Shown: positions 4,863 through 62,185 of the stretch, piece by piece
Layout of the letters: every line of letters begins with the position of its first letter
How positions within the stretch are numbered: position 1 is the stretch's first letter
Assembly: GCF_004010195.1 (NCBI RefSeq)
Contig: NC_057718.1
Location: 90,935,353 to 90,999,352 of the forward strand
DNA from: Chiloscyllium plagiosum
Lineage: Eukaryota
Direction of reading: 5' to 3'
DNA: 64,000 nucleotides
The notes under the pieces: model-generated
Database searches by the model: none
What the model was told of the DNA's origin: nothing
The model's input: only the letters and a program-made list of their open reading frames with translations
Made by a program: the position numbers and the translations under genes

Positions 4863-5400
4863 TAGCAAAAACAGAAATTTCTAGAAAAGCTCAGCAGGTT
4901 TAGCAGCATCTGTGAAGAGAAATCAGAGTTGATGAGTCTGAGGAAGAGTGACCCGATCCAAAATGCTAACTCTGATTTCTCTTTATAGATGTTGACAGAC
5001 CTGCTGAGCTTTTCCAGCAATTCATTAAAATCACTACAGTGTGGAAACAGGCCATTAGGCCCAGCAAGTCCACACCGCCCCTCCGAAGAGTAACCCTCTA
5101 AGACCCAATCCCCTCCCCTATTACTTTACATTTCTCCTGACTAATGCACCTAACCTACACATCCCTAAACACTATGGTCAATTTAGCATGGCCAATTCAC
5201 CTGACCTACACATCTTTGGACTGTGGGAGGAAACCGGAGCACCTGGAGGAAACCCACACGACACAGGGAGAATGTGCAAACTCCACATAGACACTGGCCT
5301 AAGGCTGGAATAAAACACTGGTACTGTGAGGCAGCAGTGCTAGCCACTGAGCCACTGTGCTGTTTTTGTTTCTCATTTACAGCATCGGCAGTTCTTTCGT
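4863..5400. mobile_element. Fold-back PLE-derived element, family D, split by an HE1 SINE
   Basis: Inverted arms at about 4875-4932 and 4967-5022. Degenerate core CTGAGGA-A-GAGT..GATCC-AAAA-TGCTA at about 4938-4968. The tail resumes after the SINE at about 5360. Confidence 0.7.
5030..5360 (-). mobile_element. HE1-type SINE
   Basis: Consensus match to the other copies. Confidence 0.9.
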
Positions 5401-20249: not shown

Positions 20250-21510
20250 AGACATAAATGGACTTATTAGTGATAGACAGCATGGTTTTGTACAGGTGAG
20301 GTAGTGTCTTACTAACTTGATCAAGATTTTTGAGAAGGTAATAAAGATGAATGAGGGAGAAACGTTTGATGATGTCTACATGGACTCCAGTGAACTCTTA
20401 TGGCAGACTGGTACAAAAAGTGACATCACATAGTACCAGGGGTGAGCTGACAAGGTGGATACAGAACTGGCTTAGTTATTGGAGACAGAGAATAGCAGTG
20501 GAGGGATGTTTTTCAGAATGGAGGGTTCTGACTAGTAGTGTTCCACTGGGATTGATGCTGGGAGCTCTGCTGTTCGTGATCTGCATAAATGATTTGGAGG
20601 AAAATGTAGCTGGCCTAATTAGAAAGTTTATGGGTGATACAAAGATTGGTGGGGTTGCAGATAGTGAGGAGGATTGTCAAGGGAATATAGAAGGATATAG
20701 ATCGGTTGGAGACATGGGGAGGAAAATGGCAGATGGAGTTTACTCTGGACAAATGTGAGGTGATGCTCAATGGAAGTTCAGGTACAGCTGGAAATTATAC
20801 AGTGAATGGCAGAACCGTGAGGAATGTTGATGTGCAGAGGGATCTGGGTGTGCAGGTGTACTAAGGTAGTTTGTAAAAAAAAAAAGGCCTATGGAATGCT
20901 TACCTTCATTGGAAGGGGCATTGAGTATAAGAATAGACAAGTTATGCTGCAGCTTTATAGAACTTTAGTTTGACCACATTTGGAATACAGTTCTGGTCAC
21001 CACACTACCAGAAGGATGATGTGGATACTTTGGAGCGCTTACAGAAAAGGTTTACCAGGATGTTGCCTGGTATGGGGGGATATTAGCTGTGAAGAAAGGT
21101 TGGATAGACTGGGTTTGTTTAAACTGAAGCGCAGAAGGTTGAGGGGTGACCTGATAGAGGTTTATAAGGATTGTGAATGACCTGGATAGAGTAGAAATAT
21201 GAGCCTTTTTACCAGACTGGAGGGGTCAATTACTAGGGGACACAGGTTCAAGGTGCATGGGGCAAGTTTTAAAGGAGATGTGCAAGGCAGGTCTTTCACA
21301 CAAAAGGTGGTGAGTGTCTGAAATGCGCTGCCAGAGGAGGTGGCGGAAGTAGACACAATAGCAGCATTCCAGAAGCACGGAGATGAATACATGAATGGGA
21401 AGGGAATAGAGGGGTACAGACCCTGTAAGTGAAGGTTTAGCGTGGAAGAGCAAAATGTGGCAATGCAGGCTTGGAGGGCCGAAGGGCCTGATCCTGTGCT
21501 GTATTGTTCT
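20250..21510 (+). mobile_element. Nested CR1-type LINE (RT to 3' end)
   Basis: Peptides 'WIQNWLSYWRQRIAVEGCFSEWRVLTSSVPLG..LGALLFVICINDL...KFMGDTKIGG' and 'LRGDLIEVYK'. 3' UTR GGGCCGAAGGGCCTG. Confidence 0.85.
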
Positions 21511-24019: not shown

Positions 24020-24735
24020 CAAAAAAACCTAAGTGAGCTTGAATCTCACGGATTCTGGAGCTTCTCATATTTCGATAGTGGGAGTGCTACATACTGATGC
24101 AGGGTGCATCGGTATTTCAATTATATGTGTATTTGGTGACAGAAAAGAGTGAAGTACAACAGACTACCTCGGACTTTGCCCTGATACTAAAGAACTTTGT
24201 AATTTCTGTCAGTTAATTAATAATACTTGCAGGCAGTTTGGACTTCTCAAATTACAGCTAGTTACTTTTACAGGTATAGAGTGTTTTATTTCTTCCATCC
24301 GTTACAATTTCATACGTTGTTAATTACGTAAAACAATGACAGCTGCACTTTGTAGCCTTTTAGAAATGTCATTATGCCCTTGTTGCAAGTGTTAAGCTGA
24401 AATTGGATTTCCTGATCGATAATTCCCAAAGGGTTTGTCATAAGCTTAAGAGATGTTTCAAGCAAAAAGATGACAATTTAATTCATTGGAGAAAATCTGG
24501 CGGAGATATAGGAAGCAACAAAGCTAATTTCACTGTCTTGAGACCACTTATCAGTGGGCTTGAGACTTTCTCTGCTTGAAATATTTATTTAGTCTTCCCA
24601 AGATGTGATTGTCTCTGTCTCTGCCCTCAACCATTCCCCTAGACAAAATATATTCCCCAACAACGAATTGCACAAAAAAAGTTTCACCTAATCCCTCTTC
24701 TCATCTTTGGCAATTTTAATATTGATTGCACCACA

Positions 24736-25111
24736 GTAGAAAGTGAGGACTGCAGATGCTGGAGATCAGAGTCGCGAGTGTGGTGCTGGAAAAGCACAGC
24801 AGGTCAGGCAGCATCCGAGGAGCGGGAGAATCAACGCTTTGGGCATAAGCCCTTCATCAGGAATTTTGGGAGTGTCTGGGGCGTGTTGCCAAAGAGACCT
24901 GGGGTCCAGCAGCACAGTTCCTTGCAAGTGGAGTCACAGGTATACAAGGTGGTGAAGGCGGCGTTTGGCATGCTTGCCTTCATTGGTGACAACCTTTGGT
25001 ATAGGAATTGGGATTTCATACCTGATGAAGGGCTTATGCGCGAAACGTCGATTCTCCTGCTCCTCAGATGCTGCCTGACCTGCTTTGCTTTTCCAGCGCC
25101 ACACTTTCGAC
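24736..25111. mobile_element. Composite fold-back family A HHR element enclosing about 150 bp of captured CR1 sequence
   Basis: 15-bp TSD ATTGATTGCACCACA at 24721-24735 and 25112-25126. Inverted arms at 24736-24862 and 25021-25110. Plus-strand core CTGATGA-A-GGGC-TTAT-GCGC-GAAA-CGTC at 25022-25049. Confidence 0.9.
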
Positions 25112-25619
25112 ATTGATTGCACCACACACAGACACACACACATCACTGAGTACCTAACCATTGGAAATAATGTGCCCTTTCTCTCTTTTTTCCAAAGTCT
25201 TGATAATTTGTTAACATTGATATAATTCCATCCAACTTTCTCCTCTTCAGTGGAAATAGTTCCAGTTCTCTCCAACTCATTCACATTCTATACTCATTCA
25301 TTGACCTACTGGCACACTGTACTCAATTGCATTTATGAAAGATAGTCCATTGTTTATTTTGCAACGTTTATAGTTTAATCTTTTTGCTTTCATTTTCAGC
25401 GAACTATATATATGAATATAAATATGTTTGTCCATACCTTTTGCCTTTCCATTTGAATGTTCACTCTAGTTCCTTGTTTGTCTTCTAAAACGCATTGTCT
25501 AGCATCTTGCATTGCTTCTCCTATCTATCTGTTATCTTGAGGTCTTTTGTAATGCTTCCAGCTGCTTATTAAATGTCCTGTTTTGGGGTGATTAGTAAAT
25601 TTTGAGATTGTACCCCCTA

Positions 25620-26680
25620 ATAGAAGATCGTAGAATCATATAGCATAGAAACCGACCCCTCTGTCCAACTCATGCACGCTGACCAAACATTCCAATCCGA
25701 CCTAGTCCCATTTGCCAGCATTTAGCCCATATCACTCTTAAGCCCTTTCTATTCATGTACCCACCCAGATACCTTTTAAAATGTTATAATTGTACCATTT
25801 CCTTTGGTAGCTCATTCCATACATGCACTACTCTCTGCCTGAAAAATGTACTTCTCAGGTCCTTTTTACATCTTTCCTCTCTCACCTTAAACCTGGACTC
25901 CTCCAGATTAGGAAACAGACCTTGGTAATTCACTCTATCCATGCCTATGATTTTATAAAACTCTATTAGGTCACCCCTCAGTCTCTGACACTCCAGGGAC
26001 AAAAAGCCCCAGCCTACTCAGCCTCTCCCTACAGCTCAAACCTCCAGTCCGGGCAACATCCTTGTAACACTTTCCTGCATCCTCTCGAGTTTAACAACAT
26101 CTCTCTACAGAAAGGCAACCAGAATTGTATGCAGTATTCTAAAGGTTGCCTTATCAATGTCTTGTATAGTTGCATCATGACATCCCAATTCCTATACCAA
26201 ATGTTGTGATCAATGAAGGCAAGCATGCCAAACGCTGCCTTCACCACTCTGTCTAGCTGTGACACCACCTGCAAGGAACTGTGCACTTGCACCCAATGTC
26301 TCTGTTTGGCAACACTCCCCAGACACTCCCAAAATTCCTGACGAAGGGGTTTTGCCCAACATGTCGATTCTCCTACTTCTCGGAAGCTGCCTGACCTGCT
26401 GTGCTTTTCCAGCACCACACTCTCGAATGAACACTCCCCAGGACCTAGTTAAGTGTTTAAGTCTTGCCCTGGTTTTCCTTCCCAAAATGCAACACGTGAC
26501 ATTTATCTAAGTTAGATTTCATCTGTCATTCCTTGGCCCATTGACTCATCTGATCAAAGTCCTGTTGTACTCTGAGAGAACTTTCTTCACTGTCAACTAC
26601 ACCACCTGTTTTGGTGTCATCTGCAAACTTGGTAACCATACCTCCTATATTCACATTCAAATCATTTATAAAACATACCA
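25620..26680 (-). mobile_element. CR1/HER1 LINE 3' 1 kb
   Basis: Peptides 'FINDLNVNIGGMVTKFADDTKTGG', 'LEYCIQFWLP' and 'LRGDLIEFYKI'. Confidence 0.9.
26323..26429 (+). mobile_element. Short family A HHR element inserted in a CR1 LINE
   Basis: 12-bp TSD AACACTCCCCAG at 26311-26322 and 26430-26441. Degenerate core CTGACGA-A-GGGG-TTTT-GCCC-AACA-TGTC. Confidence 0.85.
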
Positions 26681-31319: not shown

Positions 31320-31569
31320 AAAAGAAAACTGCTGGAGATCACCGCTGGTCAGGCAGCATCCGTGGGGAGAGAGCAAGCTAACATTTCCAGTCTAGATGAC
31401 TCTTCATCATAGCTGACATGGAGTGATGTCAACTCTGAAGAGTCATCTGGACTTGAACCATTAGCTTGCTCTCTCTCCACGGATGCTGCCTGACCCGCTG
31501 TGATCTCTGACGTTTTTTTGATTTCAGTACAGACTCCAGCATTTGCAGTAATTTGTTCCTCTATAACCT
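31320..31569. mobile_element. Fold-back PLE-derived element, family C
   Basis: 9-bp TSD GTCTGAACC at 31311-31319 and 31570-31578. Long inverted arms. Minus-strand degenerate core ATGATGA-A-GAGTC-ATCTA-GACTG-GAAA-TGTTA. Confidence 0.8.
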
Positions 31570-42317: not shown

Positions 42318-42668
42318 AGTAGATTCTCTACATTAGGAAAGTAGGCCATTAGACCCATTGAGACCACACCACCCCTCTGTAGAGTATCCCACCCAGATCC
42401 ACTCCCCTACCCTATCCCTGTAACCCTGCATTTCCCATGGCTAATCCACCCTAACCTGCACATCCCTAATCACTATGAGCAATTTAGCTTAGTCAATCCA
42501 CCCTAACCTGCACATCCCTCATCACGATGAGCAATTTAGCACAGTCAATCCACCCTAACCTGCACATCCCTAGTCACTATGAGCAATTTAGCATAGTTAA
42601 TCCACCCTAACCTGCACATCCCTAGTCACTATGAGCAATTTAGCATAGTTAATCCACCCTAACCTGCA
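42318..42668 (-). mobile_element. HE1-type SINE 3' part with tandemly expanded internal unit
   Basis: SINE tail at 42318-42440 followed by the array; no tRNA head. Confidence 0.8.
42443..42668. repeat. 52-bp tandem repeat, about 4.3 copies
   Basis: Units start at 42443, 42495, 42547, 42599 and 42651 (AATCCACCCTAACCTGCACATCCCT...). Confidence 0.95.
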
Positions 42669-44229
42669 GTCTTATTCCCTCCTCCTCCTCCTCCCTGCCT
42701 CCACTCCAGTGAATCCAAAGAATTTCAGATCCTGACCGTGGCCAATTCCACTAACAACCTGCAAGACATTACCGAGGTACATCTCCAAAAACAGTGAAGC
42801 ATCTGAAATAATCAAGTTTGGGGTCTAATTATCTTCTTTGTCAAAATAACAGTAAACACTTTGGTGTTCGGCAATGCGCTTTATTTGTAACAATGCCTGT
42901 ACTTTGTTCTGAGCAATTTCAAAGTTGCATCTTTATCTAAACTTGGGCCGCATGCTAAGTTTTTTATTCTCCCCCTGAAGATTCTCATGGGTCTGTGACA
43001 GGAAATTCAGAGTGCTGATGCAAAGGGTTGCAAAAGCCAGCACTAGGGAGAGGAGTTCTTATTTTGGGACTGGGAGTTCTATCTTTGATACAGGCAATGC
43101 CACTGATAGCTGTTTGAACATGCCTCCACAGAACTGAGAGGCCACAATCAGATACTGGTGCTGCATTCCAATGACCCACCCATCTGTCCCTTTTCAGTCA
43201 GAGATAGCGTGCAGTGTTAAGTAACCTGCAGAACAAGGGCAAAATACAAGGAAGTCTCGCTCATAAATTAAACTCTTGTCGTTACTTTGGTTTTCTCTCC
43301 TTTTGTTTAGTAAGTCTTTTTAACAGTGGCCAGCATTCCTCTGTGAGGTCATTGTTTCGCGTCTTACAGCAGTGTTCCCGGTTGCCTGTGTTGGTTTTGG
43401 ATTACAGTTTGTATGGTGTCCAAAAGCCTCTCCAGAAAATGAAACTTTCTCAGGCTAAAATAGAGCTAGTGTCTCACAGGGGAGTTCTTGGCTGGCTTCT
43501 ATTCTTTGAACAGCCTGGTTTCAAATCTCCCGTGCCAGGACACTACACGAATCAGCGATCGGTTTGGAGGCAACTGATATTTCTGCAGGGGAAACTCCTC
43601 TTGCTGAAAAAGAAAAAGAAAACATCTTTAATGAATGACATTTGTATTATAAGGAAGAAAACCAAGAACCCAAATGCTTCTTGCAGATGTTGTAAATCTG
43701 AAATTACAGATCTGGAAAATAGCAGAAATGCTTCTACCACTCTGAAATTGTGGATTTGAAATGTACAACTTCTTACGACAATGCATTTTGCAGCAGACCG
43801 AGGTCATTTATTTAACTTTGTTACAAATATTGTGTGCGTTGAACTGAAAGCCGTTAATTGTGTGTTGTTGAAACCAATTTAACCCCCTTTGGCCTTAAAT
43901 GTTACTGTTTTTCTTTTACATGTGGACAATTTGGAGAGACCTCTCTCACTTGCTGTCTCACTCTGCGTATCTAACCAAATAGCTGCCCCGTAATGCTGTC
44001 GTATCCTGTTTTTGCTTTTTCAGAGTATGTGTCTCCTCTCCCAAACCTTGCCATCTTTCAGTCCAATCTGAAGCCTTCCCCTGGCCCTTGTTATTTGATT
44101 TGCCAGGACACTGGTCCCTGCACAGTACAAACAAAGTCCCTCCCACTGAAACAGGTCCCTGCTACTCCAAGTTCTGCTGCCATTGCCTCACAAACTGAAA
44201 TCCATTCCACCCTCAGCAATCTCTGAGCC

Positions 44230-50101: not shown

Positions 50102-51319
50102 ATAATCCATGGCATTGATGATGATTAAGCCCACCCATGCCCCAGTATTTACAGGAAGGGCAGAAAGGGTACAGGGGAGAGAGGAAACCACTGGAGAATG
50201 TGTCAAGCCCAACAATGCAGAGGTCCTATTCCAATTTAAGGCAGGAGGTCGGTTTTTGTTTCTTCCTATTCCCATTCTTAGGATAATTGTCAGCTGGGGG
50301 TGGAGGTCAAAGATCAGGGTCTGCAGCCAGCTCTCTTCGCTGTCTCATCAGTGACCTTCTGTTAATCAGAACATCAGAAGTGATGATGTTTGCTGCAGAC
50401 CCCTTGGATATTGAACCAAGCTATGCACTATGTCCTGCAAAACCTGGGCAACATTCAGGCATGGGATAATAAGTAGCAAGTAACATGATCCCTCCACACA
50501 ACTGGTAAGCAATGGGCATCTCCAACAAAAGGAAATCAAACCATTAAATGGTATACTTTTGAATGCCATGTGTCAGACAATGATCGTCGCCAACAAGAAA
50601 GAATCTGTTTAACTGGTCAATGGCAGTCAGCTGTATCCATTGTTGAATGGATTTTTGACCAGTAACTGCATTGAACTTGCTGATGAAATAATGTGGCTAC
50701 AGAAGCTGGGAATTGTGCAGAAGGTAACTTGCCTGCTCACTGCCTAGAGACCAGGCACATGTCAGTCAGGTGACGGAATCCTTCTTCTTGCCTGGAGGAG
50801 TGTAACTCCAAGAAAACGCTGGGAGCTTGACATTGTCCAACACAAAGCATCTTGCTTCAACTATACCTCTGTTTATTCACTCCTCCACTAGCGTAACATG
50901 TACAGGCAACAGCTTTCCAAGGCCCCTTTGACTGTACTTCCCATCTCACAACACCTTTCACTAAGGACAAAGGCTTTAGCACCACATGCAAGTTTCCCTT
51001 CAACTCAAACACCATCCTGACTTGGAAATACCCTGCCACTCCTCCTCCTCCATCACTGAATCAAAATCCTGGAATTCCTTATTTCTGGGAGCTCTTTCAC
51101 CACAGATACTGCAGCAGTTCAAGAAGGCAACCTTCTGTCAGGGTTCTTGAGATGGTCAGTAAACACTGAGTGCCCATATCTTATGTACAAAAGAATATGC
51201 ACTTTGGAATGGCTGCAGGTGCACATGCTGACATTTTGATGTGTTCAAAGTTTGTGCGAAGATTTGTAGCTCGGGTGCTCGTTGTTGTGGTTCTGTTCGC
51301 CGAGCTGGAAGTTTTTGTT

Positions 51320-51359
51320 GCAAACGTTTCGTCCCCTGGCTAGGCGACATCATCAGTGC
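51320..51359 (-). ncRNA. Minimal type I hammerhead ribozyme, identical inverted copy
   Basis: Exact reverse complement of 51576-51615. Confidence 0.8.
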
Positions 51360-51575
51360 TTGGGAGCCTCCTGCGAAGCGCTTCTTTGATGTTTCCTCCG
51401 GTGTTTATAGTGGTCTGTCCCTGCCGCTTCCGGTTGTCGGTTTCAGCTGTCCGCTGTAGTGGTTGGTATATTGGGTCCAGGTCGATGTGTTTGTTGATGG
51501 AGTTTGTGGATGAATGCCGTGCCTCCTAGAGGCATCAAAGAAACATCAAAGAAGCGTTTCGCAGGAGGCTCCCAA

Positions 51576-51615
51576 GCACTGATGATGTCGCCTAGCCAGG
51601 GGACGAAACGTTTGC
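51576..51615 (+). ncRNA. Minimal type I hammerhead ribozyme, intact core
   Basis: GCA-CTGATGA-T-GTCGCC-TAGCCA-GGGGAC-GAAA-CG-TT-TGC. Stem I GCA/TGC, stem II 5 of 6 pairs, palindromic AAACGTTT in place of helix III. Confidence 0.8.
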
Positions 51616-53289
51616 AACAAAAACTTCCAGCTCGGCGAACAGAACCACAACATTTTGATGTGTTCCCACTTTTCAGTGGATCAGTGGAGTGCTGTTGGTC
51701 TGGGAGGCTCATCTGACTGTCTGTCTGATTTCCCTTATCTATTTATGCTGCCTTGGGATTTACACCTTTTTGTTTTTTTTCTCTTTTGTCTGCCACAGCT
51801 GTTCAAACATAATTGCTTATATGTGGTTTGTGGGCATGAAATTCAGCTACTTTGTATAATCAAAGGCAAAACGAGATGAATCACACCTGCCTGGACAGGC
51901 CCCATCAGAAACACAGTGGACAAAAGAAAGCATATTTGTATAAAGATGAACGAGGATGGATCAAGGGAATTCCCCAAGTTGGCTGTTCTTGAAGAGCTTT
52001 TGTATTTTGGCTGAACCCTTGGCAGGTATTTGATACACCACCTCTGATGTGCCTTTTCTGTTGATGAGATGACCATTTTGCTGATGAGAACACTGCTTCT
52101 CAGTCTTCCTTCTCCAAGTACTTTTATTTGTTTGCAAGAGGCACAGAGTGACTGGTTCACGCTTATAAAAGTGTTTGGCTTATGAGTTAAACATTACAGC
52201 TTACCGAAACTGATATGGGGAAATAAATTGTTTAAAGTTTGAGATACTTTCTATTGCAGGGGAGCAACAGCTCATTTCTTACCAGAGGTCTGATGACTTC
52301 TACCTCAAACGTTCACATGCACAAGCTGTTCATGTGGGAGCAGGTTACAGTTGTTAACAAGTGGGGGGAGGCCTTTGGTAGGCATAACTGGTCACCATTT
52401 TACAGATCAATCAGCCACTTGCTGCTGGCCAAATCTCCCATTGTATATAACCCCCAGGCTCTAGCTGGTCAGTAGCTAGACTTTCCCCACTGCTTGAACC
52501 AACAGCTGTGTAAACCACACTCGCAGTGAGTGTCAGGTAACTTAATTTTCAGAAGTGCAGCAATCACTTCCATCCTTGGTTTTAAAACATTCCTTCCACC
52601 ATTTCAGTCCACAATCAAAAATACAGCAAATTATAAAGGTGCAGTCTTTGCATCATCTCTATCTTAAAAGGGAGACCCATAATTTTGAGGTGTATTCTTC
52701 CTCCTGTTTCGAGGTTCCCCCACATGGGGAAAAAACCTTCTCAAGCTTATATCCTTTTGAGATCCCTCACAATTTTAAATGTAAGTCAATGAGATAACCT
52801 TTTTATTTTCTAAATGGCAATGAGCATGACCCCAAACTGCTTCTCCTTTCTTAACACACCTCCTTCATCCTAGGAATTTGCCCAGAGAACCGTCTTTGTA
52901 TTGTCCTCACAATTAGTATTTTTACGTATCTCTGTGTCATCATCAAGTTTGACAAAAGCAAATCTTTCTTCAAATCATGAAGATAGATCATAAACAATTG
53001 ATGTTTAGCGCCAGTCCCTTTGGGACTCTGCTTGTTGTGGTTTATTAATTTGAAAACTTATAAACCATGGATACTGCTGAATGCCATTGACAGGTAAAAG
53101 GATCCTTTCTTGTTGGAGATGATCATTGTCTGACACATGGCATTCAAAAGTATACTCATTTATATTTTTGCTCGTTCTTGCCCTCTCTCTCTCCAGGAAA
53201 GGTAGGACTTGAACCCGGACCATTCAGCCCAGAGTTGATGACATTTTCACTGATCTACAAGATCCTACTTAGTCTTAAAGATCAGGTAC

Positions 53290-57789: not shown

Positions 57790-58001
57790 AAATCAACTAG
57801 GTAAAAGTGAGGACTGCAGATGCTGGAAATCAGAGTCTAGATTAGAGTGGTGCTGGAAAAGCACAGCAGGTCAGGCAGCATCCGAGGAGTAGGAAAATCG
57901 ACATTTCGTCCTGATGAAGGGTTTTTGCCCGAAACATCGATTTTCCTGCTCCTGGGATGCTGCCTGACCTGCTGTGCTTTTCCAGCACCAGTCTGATCTT
58001 G
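57790..58001. mobile_element. Fold-back family A HHR element
   Basis: 15-bp TSD GCTGCTGTAA(G/T)GAGA at 57775-57789 and 58002-58016. Plus-strand core TC-CTGATGA-A-GGGT-TTTT-GCCC-GAAA-CA-TC-GA at 57909-57940. The arms nearly abut. Confidence 0.9.
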
Positions 58002-60235: not shown

Positions 60236-60350
60236 AGAGAGAAAGTGAGGACTGCAAGAACGATCAAGGGCTTATACCCAAAATATCAATTGTCCTGCTG
60301 CTCATATGCGGCCTGACCTGCTTTGCTGTTCCAGCTCCATGCTTTTTGAC
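60236..60350. mobile_element. Family A element with 3' stub plus inverted arm
   Basis: 16-bp TSD CTTGTTCACAA(A/G)AACA at 60220-60235 and 60351-60366. Confidence 0.8.
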
Positions 60351-61412: not shown

Positions 61413-62185
61413 AGAGTCATACAGCACAGAAACAGACCCCTTCAGTCCAACTCGTCCATGCTGACCAGATATTCTAAACTAATCTAACCTTATTTGCCAG
61501 CATTTGCCCTTCTAAACCCTTCCTATTCATGTATCCATCCAGATGCCTTTTAAATGTTGTAATTGTACCAGCCTCCACCACTTCCTCTGGCAGCTCATTC
61601 CACACACGCTGTTTGAAAAAGTTGCCCCTTAGGTCCCTTTTAAATCTTTCCCCTCTCACCTTAAATCTGTGCTCTCGACTCCCGTACCTGGGACAAATAC
61701 CTTGGCTATTCACCCTATGTATGCCCCTCATGATTTTATAAATCTCTATAAGGTCACCCCTCATACTCTGATGCTCCAGAGAAAACAGCTCCAGTATATT
61801 CAGCCTCTCCCTATAGTTCAAACCCTCCAACCCTGAGCAATCTCCTTTGCAAATCTTTACTCAACCCTTTTATAGCATCTGTCCAATAGCTAGGTGTACA
61901 GAATTCAATGCAGTGTTCCAAAAGTGGTCTAACCAATGACCTGTACAGCTGCAGCATGACCTCCCAACTGATGAAGTACTTACGTTCAAAACGTCGATTC
62001 TCCTGCTCCTCCGAAGCCGTCTGATCGGCTGTGTTTTTCTAGTGCCACACTCTTCCACGCTGATCTCCAACATCTGCAGTCCTCACTTTCTCCCAACTCC
62101 TATACTCAATGTACTGACCAATGACAGCACGTGTACTAGATGCCTTCCTCACTATCCTGCCTACCTGCAACTCCACTTTCAAAGA
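61413..62185 (-). mobile_element. CR1/HER1 LINE 3' fragment
   Basis: ORF 61474-61830 encodes the CR1 C-terminus. Confidence 0.9.
61970..62089 (+). mobile_element. Short family A HHR element in a CR1 LINE
   Basis: 9-bp TSD CTCCCAACT at 61961-61969 and 62090-62098. Begins at CTGATGAAG and ends CATCTGCAGTCCTCACTTT. Confidence 0.85.

Follow-up and report, generated by a model that had tools for sequence, protein, structure and literature searches.

The locus described here raises the question of how a Penelope-type fold-back came to enclose, between its two arms, a copy of the insertion junction of a neighbouring element of its own family. The window is the whole stretch of DNA that was analysed (64,000 nucleotides, 64 kb). 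Within it the fold-back, hereafter element X, occupies 24736-25111, and its neighbour, Y, is a solo arm inserted to its right in an old LINE, part of which is found again in inverted orientation inside element X. Comparisons with published work refer throughout to the portions of the cited reports that were available.

Anatomy of the fold-back and its neighbour

The two arms of element X are enclosed by an exact TSD of 15 bp and are separated by a composite spacer. Its parts are as follows.

24721-24735, plus strand: left TSD of element X, 15 bp, starting with ATT and identical to 25112-25126
24736-24864, minus strand: left arm, a Penelope-type terminal fragment including a tail of ~33 nt (about 24738-24771), with a decayed hammerhead core
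24865-24875, minus strand: copy of the filler of Y, identical at 11/11 positions to 26323-26333 and found in the window only at these two places
24876-25019, minus strand: copy of a CR1 segment from the flank of Y (26177-26322), identical at 126/144 positions
25018-25111, plus strand: right arm, without tail, overlapping the CR1 copy by 2 nt (25018-25019) and carrying a minimal hammerhead core at 25022-25049
25112-25126, plus strand: right TSD of element X, identical to 24721-24735

Exact direct pairs of 15-mers spaced by 100-500 nt are rare in the window, being limited to the TSD of element X, the TSD of a fold-back at 51.2 kb and one tandem array. The arms match each other in inverted orientation at 87% (24765-24864 against 25018-25117), leaving a spacer that extends from 24865 to 25017/19. 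Both of them reach the same 5' point and the centre shows no loss of bases; position 25020 is a T in most contigs of the family, and therefore the right arm shares its 5' starting point with the left arm and Y. Element X is a relic, dead and with no sign of function, and no effect of element X or Y on a host gene was seen. A Pfam scan of 121 of the 415 non-repeat stop-to-stop frames returned no host gene and one weak RVT_1 match, the frame concerned (20351-20755) being a LINE remnant.

The neighbouring insertion and its surroundings comprise the following features.

25632-26643, minus strand: host LINE, an old CR1-type 3' part that supplied the spacer, 76-79% identical to the copy at 54.0-54.9 kb in 5/5 blocks tested, with an ORF2-like peptide
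26177-26322, plus strand: donor segment, CR1 sequence left of Y, ending in the left TSD of Y (26311-26322)
26323-26333, plus strand: filler at the 5' junction of Y, read from the sequence as an 8-nt repeat of the target site plus three A
26334-26429, plus strand: Y, a solo arm of the same family as the arms of element X, without tail, whose end coincides with the internal RT start site and lies 86 nt from the ATG position
26430-26441, plus strand: right TSD of Y, 12 bp, an exact match to 26311-26322

The host LINE, which we take to be of CR1 type from the C-terminal ORF2 peptide translated here and not from a library match, is collinear on both sides of Y with the uninterrupted copy at 54.0-54.9 kb. 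No filler comparable to that of Y was seen by eye at four other solo arm copies of the window. A further arm copy (61961-62098) likewise interrupts CR1 sequence, ~10 nt or less from the CR1 position at which the spacer of element X ends. Its junction geometry is different, with a 9-bp TSD and no filler, and we rejected it as a relative of the capture on the grounds of that geometry and of the missing filler.

Local origin of the spacer

Local alignment of 24772-25019 with the reverse complement of 26177-26426 gave 218 identical columns out of 250, distributed as 81/93 in the arm, 11/11 in the filler and 126/144, plus one 2-nt gap, in the CR1 part. The sequence-only reading from which this study departed had described the spacer together with the left arm as the reverse complement of the neighbour, junction filler included, and both statements were borne out with the bounds corrected to those given here. 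It had also remarked that the composite has a 15-bp TSD of its own and a left arm longer than Y; the two TSD copies are indeed exact and 24736-24771 has no counterpart in Y, so that tail and separate TSDs uphold its view that element X did not arise by simple duplication of Y, an origin that we likewise rejected. Junction words of 36, 20 and 17 nt, searched on both strands of the window with up to 20% mismatch, matched only at 24855-24890 and at the Y junction. An independent origin of the filler was rejected, with a crude chance of 2e-7.

The CR1 part of element X is 87.5% identical to the flank of Y, as compared with 71-78% to four other copies of the window. At 10 of 140 columns element X and Y have in common a base that is absent from all four outgroup copies with data; the private states shared by either of them with any other copy number 0-1, those shared by pairs of outgroup copies 0-6. 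A 3-nt gap in the CR1 part is also common to both. The 18 differences between them in this part are divided into nine derived in element X, eight derived in Y and one ambiguous. The donor block is 79% identical to the 54-kb copy and the rest of the LINE 76-79%; being as near to that copy as the LINE around it, the donor is native at Y and element X carries the copy. CR1 is unbroken at 26177-26322, so that the donor, 1051-1207 nt from the target site of element X, was copied and not moved. That the spacer was made by local copying appears to us very probable.

The opposite direction of transfer, in which Y arose when broken CR1 was mended with the spacer and arm of element X as template, would account for Y being shorter than the left arm. 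It has to face the fact that Y ends at an internal RT start site (86 nt from the ATG position, against 87 nt in the right arm, with 458 loose contig ends at 26426), that Y has its own 12-bp TSD and that no non-CpG variant of the left arm occurs in Y. We rejected this highly improbable route on the strength of the RT start site, the TSD and the variants.

Copy number, assembly and related organisms

Public contigs of three DNA runs (X2, X9 and X18) and one RNA run (X21) were placed on the window at 85% likeness, and 84-85% of runs X2 and X18 were covered. Contig depth, which is not copy number, which leaves some differences uncounted and in which composite copies nearer to Y would fall on Y, was taken at 24882, just past the filler. 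It amounted to 11.7 in run X2, whose single unique-flank contigs gave 10.9-12.2, to 11.1 in organism B (run X9), summed over two contigs that both have the Y base and set beside unique pieces of about 7.1-8.1, and to 0 in run X18. Elsewhere the arms and the LINE reached depths of thousands to millions. The recurrence of the junction at many unlinked loci, which the sequence-only reading had named as evidence that would speak against local capture, was not seen at these depths. Since the value in run X2 resembles that of single unique contigs, there is no pile of composite copies; a large dispersed composite subfamily is unlikely, with room left for one further composite copy in organism B. A contig of organism B over the Y junction (X9 record 22) fits 26213-26395 with 5 differences and continues for a further 203 unplaced letters, which may reflect either rearranged DNA to the left of 26213 or an additional copy.

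These data also bear on the suggestion that the spacer derives from an unlinked third occurrence of the Y junction, in a composite subfamily or a segmental duplicate, and that the nearness of Y is due to chance. The 12.5% difference between element X and Y in spite of two exact TSDs would suit such a source, as would the depth of 11.1 in two contigs of organism B. Against it stand the single-contig depth in run X2 and its absence in run X18 (at 85% likeness, with 84-85% of the runs covered), the symmetric divergence of element X and Y, and the position of Y, which sits with its own TSD in CR1 continuous with local DNA. We regard a third copy as very unlikely.

Under a bridging rule of 31 letters on each side, the 5' junction of Y is bridged in all three organisms and the right border of element X in organisms A and B. 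Short of this rule, and suggestive only, are the left border of element X (24-30 letters), its right border in organism C (30), the joint of spacer and right arm in organism B (28-30) and the 3' border of Y in organisms B and C (28-29). Element X and Y both appear to be present in organisms B and C, and would therefore be older than these species splits; in the unique flanks the divergence from the window is 3.8% in B and 4.9% in C. These values are far below the 12.5% between element X and Y, and thus the copy predates both splits and is not an assembly artefact, which disposes of misassembly, the other objection foreseen in the sequence-only reading. No contig piece among those listed spans the whole stretch, as a misassembly would allow; on the other hand, the copies differ at 32 of 250 columns, a piece of organism B covers 24912-25047 with 2 differences, a contig of the same organism extends at least 41 letters to either side of 24882 and, as stated, the Y junction is bridged in all three organisms. 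An artefact is so improbable in view of the divergence and the contig pieces that it was rejected.

Penelope features of the arm family

The family to which the arms of element X belong has nine sites in the 64-kb window, every copy being an end of 60-190 nt. The minimal hammerhead core is intact in the right arm of element X and in the 57.9-kb copy, and decayed in the left arm and Y; in the available text of PMC4209133 such minimal motifs mark the terminal repeats of Penelope elements. Rfam returned 5 weak matches, none at gathering score and none a hammerhead, the MIR5638 match reflecting the hairpin. Searched in contigs of metagenomes, viruses and prokaryotes, an exact 34-nt pattern of the arm gave 0 loci.

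Measured from the ATG inside the core, the left arm of element X ends at 120 nt, the right arm at 87 nt and Y at 86 nt, so that the two arm ends of element X lie 33 nt apart, with the tail on the left arm only. Loose contig ends pile up at 24738 (2129-2431 contigs per run) and, with 458-788 contigs, at 24777-24780, 25107 and 26426, where run X9 contributes the 458. Penelope insertions are described with an inverted copy and a one-sided tail of 30-40 nt in the available parts of PMC8557442 and PMC3846280, and the anole element PAc cuts and extends both strands, has two internal RT start sites that bound the tail and starts RT 111-118 nt into its ORF, according to the available part of PMC11167929. 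Because it matches both this tail pattern and the start sites of PAc in vitro, the length of the left arm is ordinary: the extra part is a usual Penelope tail, due to the second RT start site, and the two arms were probably primed separately at the two ends of the target. By its arms, TSD, one-sided tail and hammerhead, element X would qualify as an EN+ Penelope-like insertion made up of terminal fragments without an ORF.

Joints leading from 24861-24864 to 25021-25042 account for 11 of the 15 joints listed (there are 2700 further ones), with up to 28 contigs each. Such spacerless joints from 24864 are common genome-wide, and 24864 is thus the run-off point of the family; spacerless fold-backs sharing the left end of element X persist in number in three genomes. 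In the window itself spacerless fold-backs of this family, with the tail on the left arm, lie at 57798-58000 and 60240-60350, the latter having a left arm of just ~17-20 nt. Older fold-backs of related hammerhead-like families occupy 4880-5020 and 31330-31510, and a tandem array with a period of 52 nt occupies 42430-42690. The fold-back at 51255-51670 is young and belongs to another hammerhead-bearing family, its arms of 113 nt being 99% complementary and its TSD of the 15-bp class; its 144-nt spacer, which is without a local donor, reads like what we take to be the end of a Penelope ORF, although Pfam gave no match. A search for a local donor at the centres of four more pieces that resemble fold-backs (31.4, 51.4, 57.9 and 60.2 kb) and in two further stretches gave nothing beyond family sequence.

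Relative age and mutation pattern

Changes were counted over 90 nt against the column majority of the nine window copies, with the CpG columns 22 and 88 set by hand to the undecayed base. The left arm has 5 changes (3 non-CpG), the right arm 5 (4) and Y 9 (7), and for Y being older than the arms this gives p 0.22 on all changes (9 vs 5+5) and p 0.25 on the non-CpG ones (7 vs 3+4). Divergence between element X and Y is equal in the arm (12/93) and the spacer (18/144), the non-CpG difference, arm minus spacer, being -1.1% (95% interval -9.8 to +7.7). Element X, Y and the copy look equally old, to within about 9%, and date to one period.

The left arm of element X holds no non-CpG variant of Y, and one CpG decay is common to both. 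A switch at a random point in the arm would pick up no change of Y with a probability of 0.30-0.13, if 1/4-1/2 of the changes predate the copy and with one extra mis-voted column; for this reason a template switch at the run-off end of the arm is favoured but not proven. Within the spacer (24876-25019), 8 of the 9 changes derived in element X are transversions, compared with 3/8 in the donor and a background of about 0.34-0.37. This excess, noted post hoc, has p 0.001-0.002, falls to 5/6 (p 0.02-0.03) when a cluster is collapsed and reaches 0.05-0.13 in a Fisher test against Y. The cluster consists of three changes of element X at 24906-24911, through which a 12-nt inverted repeat shared with the left arm was perfected (p 0.03-0.08 by simulation, also post hoc). 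Compared as inverted segments, 24905-24916 and 24779-24790 went from 8/12 to 11/12 matches through these clustered changes, which resembles template switching at a quasi-palindrome. Repair synthesis at yeast DSBs is mutagenic and gives quasipalindrome changes, as reported in the available part of PMC12891019. There are thus hints of error-prone synthesis of the spacer; the transversion at 24882, absent from organism B, is recent and counts against this reading.

How the copy was made

We favour, with a probability of about 0.55, a reading in which the left cDNA, having run off its RNA, annealed to Y and grew by ~155 nt before a 2-nt microhomology served to join it to the right arm. A Penelope-like RNP would have cut site X with a stagger of 15 nt and RT would have been primed from both 3' ends, at the tail start site on the top strand and at the internal start site on the bottom strand, as the biochemistry of PAc and the arm ends suggest, both cDNAs then running to the usual 5' stop point of the family. 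Being of the same polarity, these cDNAs cannot pair with each other, and their normal fate would be to be joined head to head with no spacer. At element X the top-strand cDNA, the last 93 nt of which are complementary to the plus strand of Y 1.2 kb away, would instead have paired with Y, as a D-loop in DNA more likely than on RNA. It would then have been extended leftwards through the filler of Y and 144 nt of CR1, from 1207 to 1051 nt from the target site, released and joined to the right cDNA through the 2-nt microhomology. The sequence-only reading had likewise proposed a local copy of the Y junction, running from the flank of Y into element X, and this part of it stands; its single strand that finishes with the inverted arm gives way to separate priming of the arms, which is likelier.

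The copying would have occurred during integration, with Y already in place and DNA as the template, and either a host repair polymerase or RT may have carried it out. Resection from the break at X would be expected to remove the template strand, so that a DNA template would need a D-loop, a sister chromatid or a fork; an RNA template would need transcription of the plus strand through Y. The RNA run X21, of which 2% was read, had 0 depth in the unique bins and carries no weight either way. Run-off and pairing with Y are made plausible by the density of potential partners, since with 9 sites in 64 kb an arm of this kind would today lie no more than 1.5 kb away from ~31% of sites, and the same route, with cDNA release followed by SDSA-like synthesis, is proposed for L1 templated insertions in the available part of 10.1101/2024.08.27.596794. 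Against this reading, Y is not detectably older than element X or the copy, and the left arm, free of non-CpG variants of Y, gives no direct sign that arm homology was used. In addition, switches to a 72% identical template in yeast needed ~200 bp of pairing, in the available text of PMC12891019; 93 nt is short by that measure, though the match of element X and Y would then have been near perfect.

Given that element X, Y and the copy look equally old, two further routes, a concerted insertion and a later repair, remain to be weighed, and all three yield the same sequence. In the concerted event one RNP (as a dimer) or two neighbouring ones would have cut X and Y together, in what would be an aborted 1.2-kb inversion. 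The top-strand cDNA of element X would jump to the free 3' end at the Y cut, where the filler would be a stutter, and copy 144 nt; the Y end would copy the cDNA of element X back, giving an inversion-type junction, and both strands would unwind, after which the Y end would pair with its own cDNA and the element X end join the right arm. The arms of element X, the arm of Y and the copy are of the same age within error and both TSDs are exact, as such an event would have it, and strand invasion would be unnecessary; moreover, second-strand synthesis in trans is described between synchronous L1 insertions (10.1101/2024.08.27.596794, available part) and PAc is predicted to be a dimer (PMC11167929, available part). 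However, two independent insertions so near in one cell would be very unlikely unless cutting were clustered, and changes in Y are somewhat more numerous (9 vs 5 and 5, not significant). At column 16 Y has the base of the 57.9-kb copy and both arms of element X another, a weak hint of a different source element. The synchronous L1 cases, as far as the available text goes, ended rearranged, their order not restored, and here there is no exchange of flanks (heteroduplication or inversion), each insertion having its own matching TSD. We therefore hold the concerted event to be rather unlikely, and with it the more general proposal that Penelope RNPs cut in clusters ~1-1.3 kb apart, run-off cDNA jumping to a second free 3' end, with element X and Y as one aborted inversion. 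Were clustered cutting true, Penelope elements would repeatedly generate short local duplications in these genomes, together with kilobase inversions where the event is not aborted.

Palindromes can be revised by a repair process that starts from a break at their centre. Applied to element X, a near-perfect spacerless palindrome would have been formed first and broken at its centre by hairpin or cruciform cleavage; its left end would have invaded Y by the synthesis-dependent strand annealing of the host, copied 155 nt and been end-joined to the right arm, the RT of the element taking no part in the capture. The final sequence would be identical, and the hints of error-prone synthesis (8/9 transversions and the cluster of three changes, both post hoc) would suit this later repair, as they would equally suit the run-off reading with a host polymerase. 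Nonetheless, neither arm lost bases at the centre, spacerless fold-backs with the same left end are numerous in three genomes and the arms show no detectable excess of age over the copy; furthermore, the literature search gave no citable paper on centre-break revision. We consider a later repair unlikely.

Comparison with known systems

Thanks to the private 11-nt filler the origin of the borrowed DNA is known to the base, and element X thereby shows that chromosomal sequence more than 1 kb distant can serve to extend a Penelope end before sealing or repair of the insertion. The arm family is very abundant in these genomes, so young fold-backs could separate the three routes. No report of a Penelope fold-back copying the junction of a neighbour was found in the literature searched, most subscription papers lying outside that search. 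With the EN+ Penelope insertions, as described in the available parts of PMC8557442, PMC3846280 and PMC11167929, element X shares head-to-head arms, a one-sided tail, a TSD, a minimal hammerhead at the arm start and two RT start sites ~33 nt apart; it differs from them in having no ORF and in arms that enclose a copy of a neighbour's junction. The steps that join two Penelope cDNA ends are left unvalidated in the available part of PMC11167929. In Adineta vaga, host DNA between Penelope pLTRs has been read as mobilisation in trans (PMC3846280). That case, like ours, has Penelope ends and a single TSD around DNA that is foreign to the element, but the available text names no local donor there, whereas the donor of element X is a local one, identified with single-base precision.

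Synchronous L1 insertions (10.1101/2024.08.27.596794) resemble our locus in strands that cross between two sites, thus providing a model for the concerted event, but in the available text they give translocations or inversions with heteroduplications, whereas here order and both TSDs are normal. Chimeras of L1 and RNA (PMC13174262, available part) use RNA partners and are less close. The nearest parallel is that of L1 templated insertions, with 22 cases whose templates are shorter than 250 bp and typically lie within 15 bp of the site (10.1101/2024.08.27.596794) and 3 more cases in PMC11702581, both reports being available in part. In those cases, as in element X, genomic DNA of less than 250 bp was copied in at a twin-primed-like junction, and a non-element segment with a local donor lies inside the TSD; the donor of element X, however, is 1.05-1.2 kb off and not within ~15 bp, starts at a sister junction, and its copy occupies the inversion point of an insertion of the Penelope and not the L1 type. 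Local template borrowing is already known from human LINE-1, and element X provides one clear and unusually well-marked fossil of such an event for a Penelope-type insertion.
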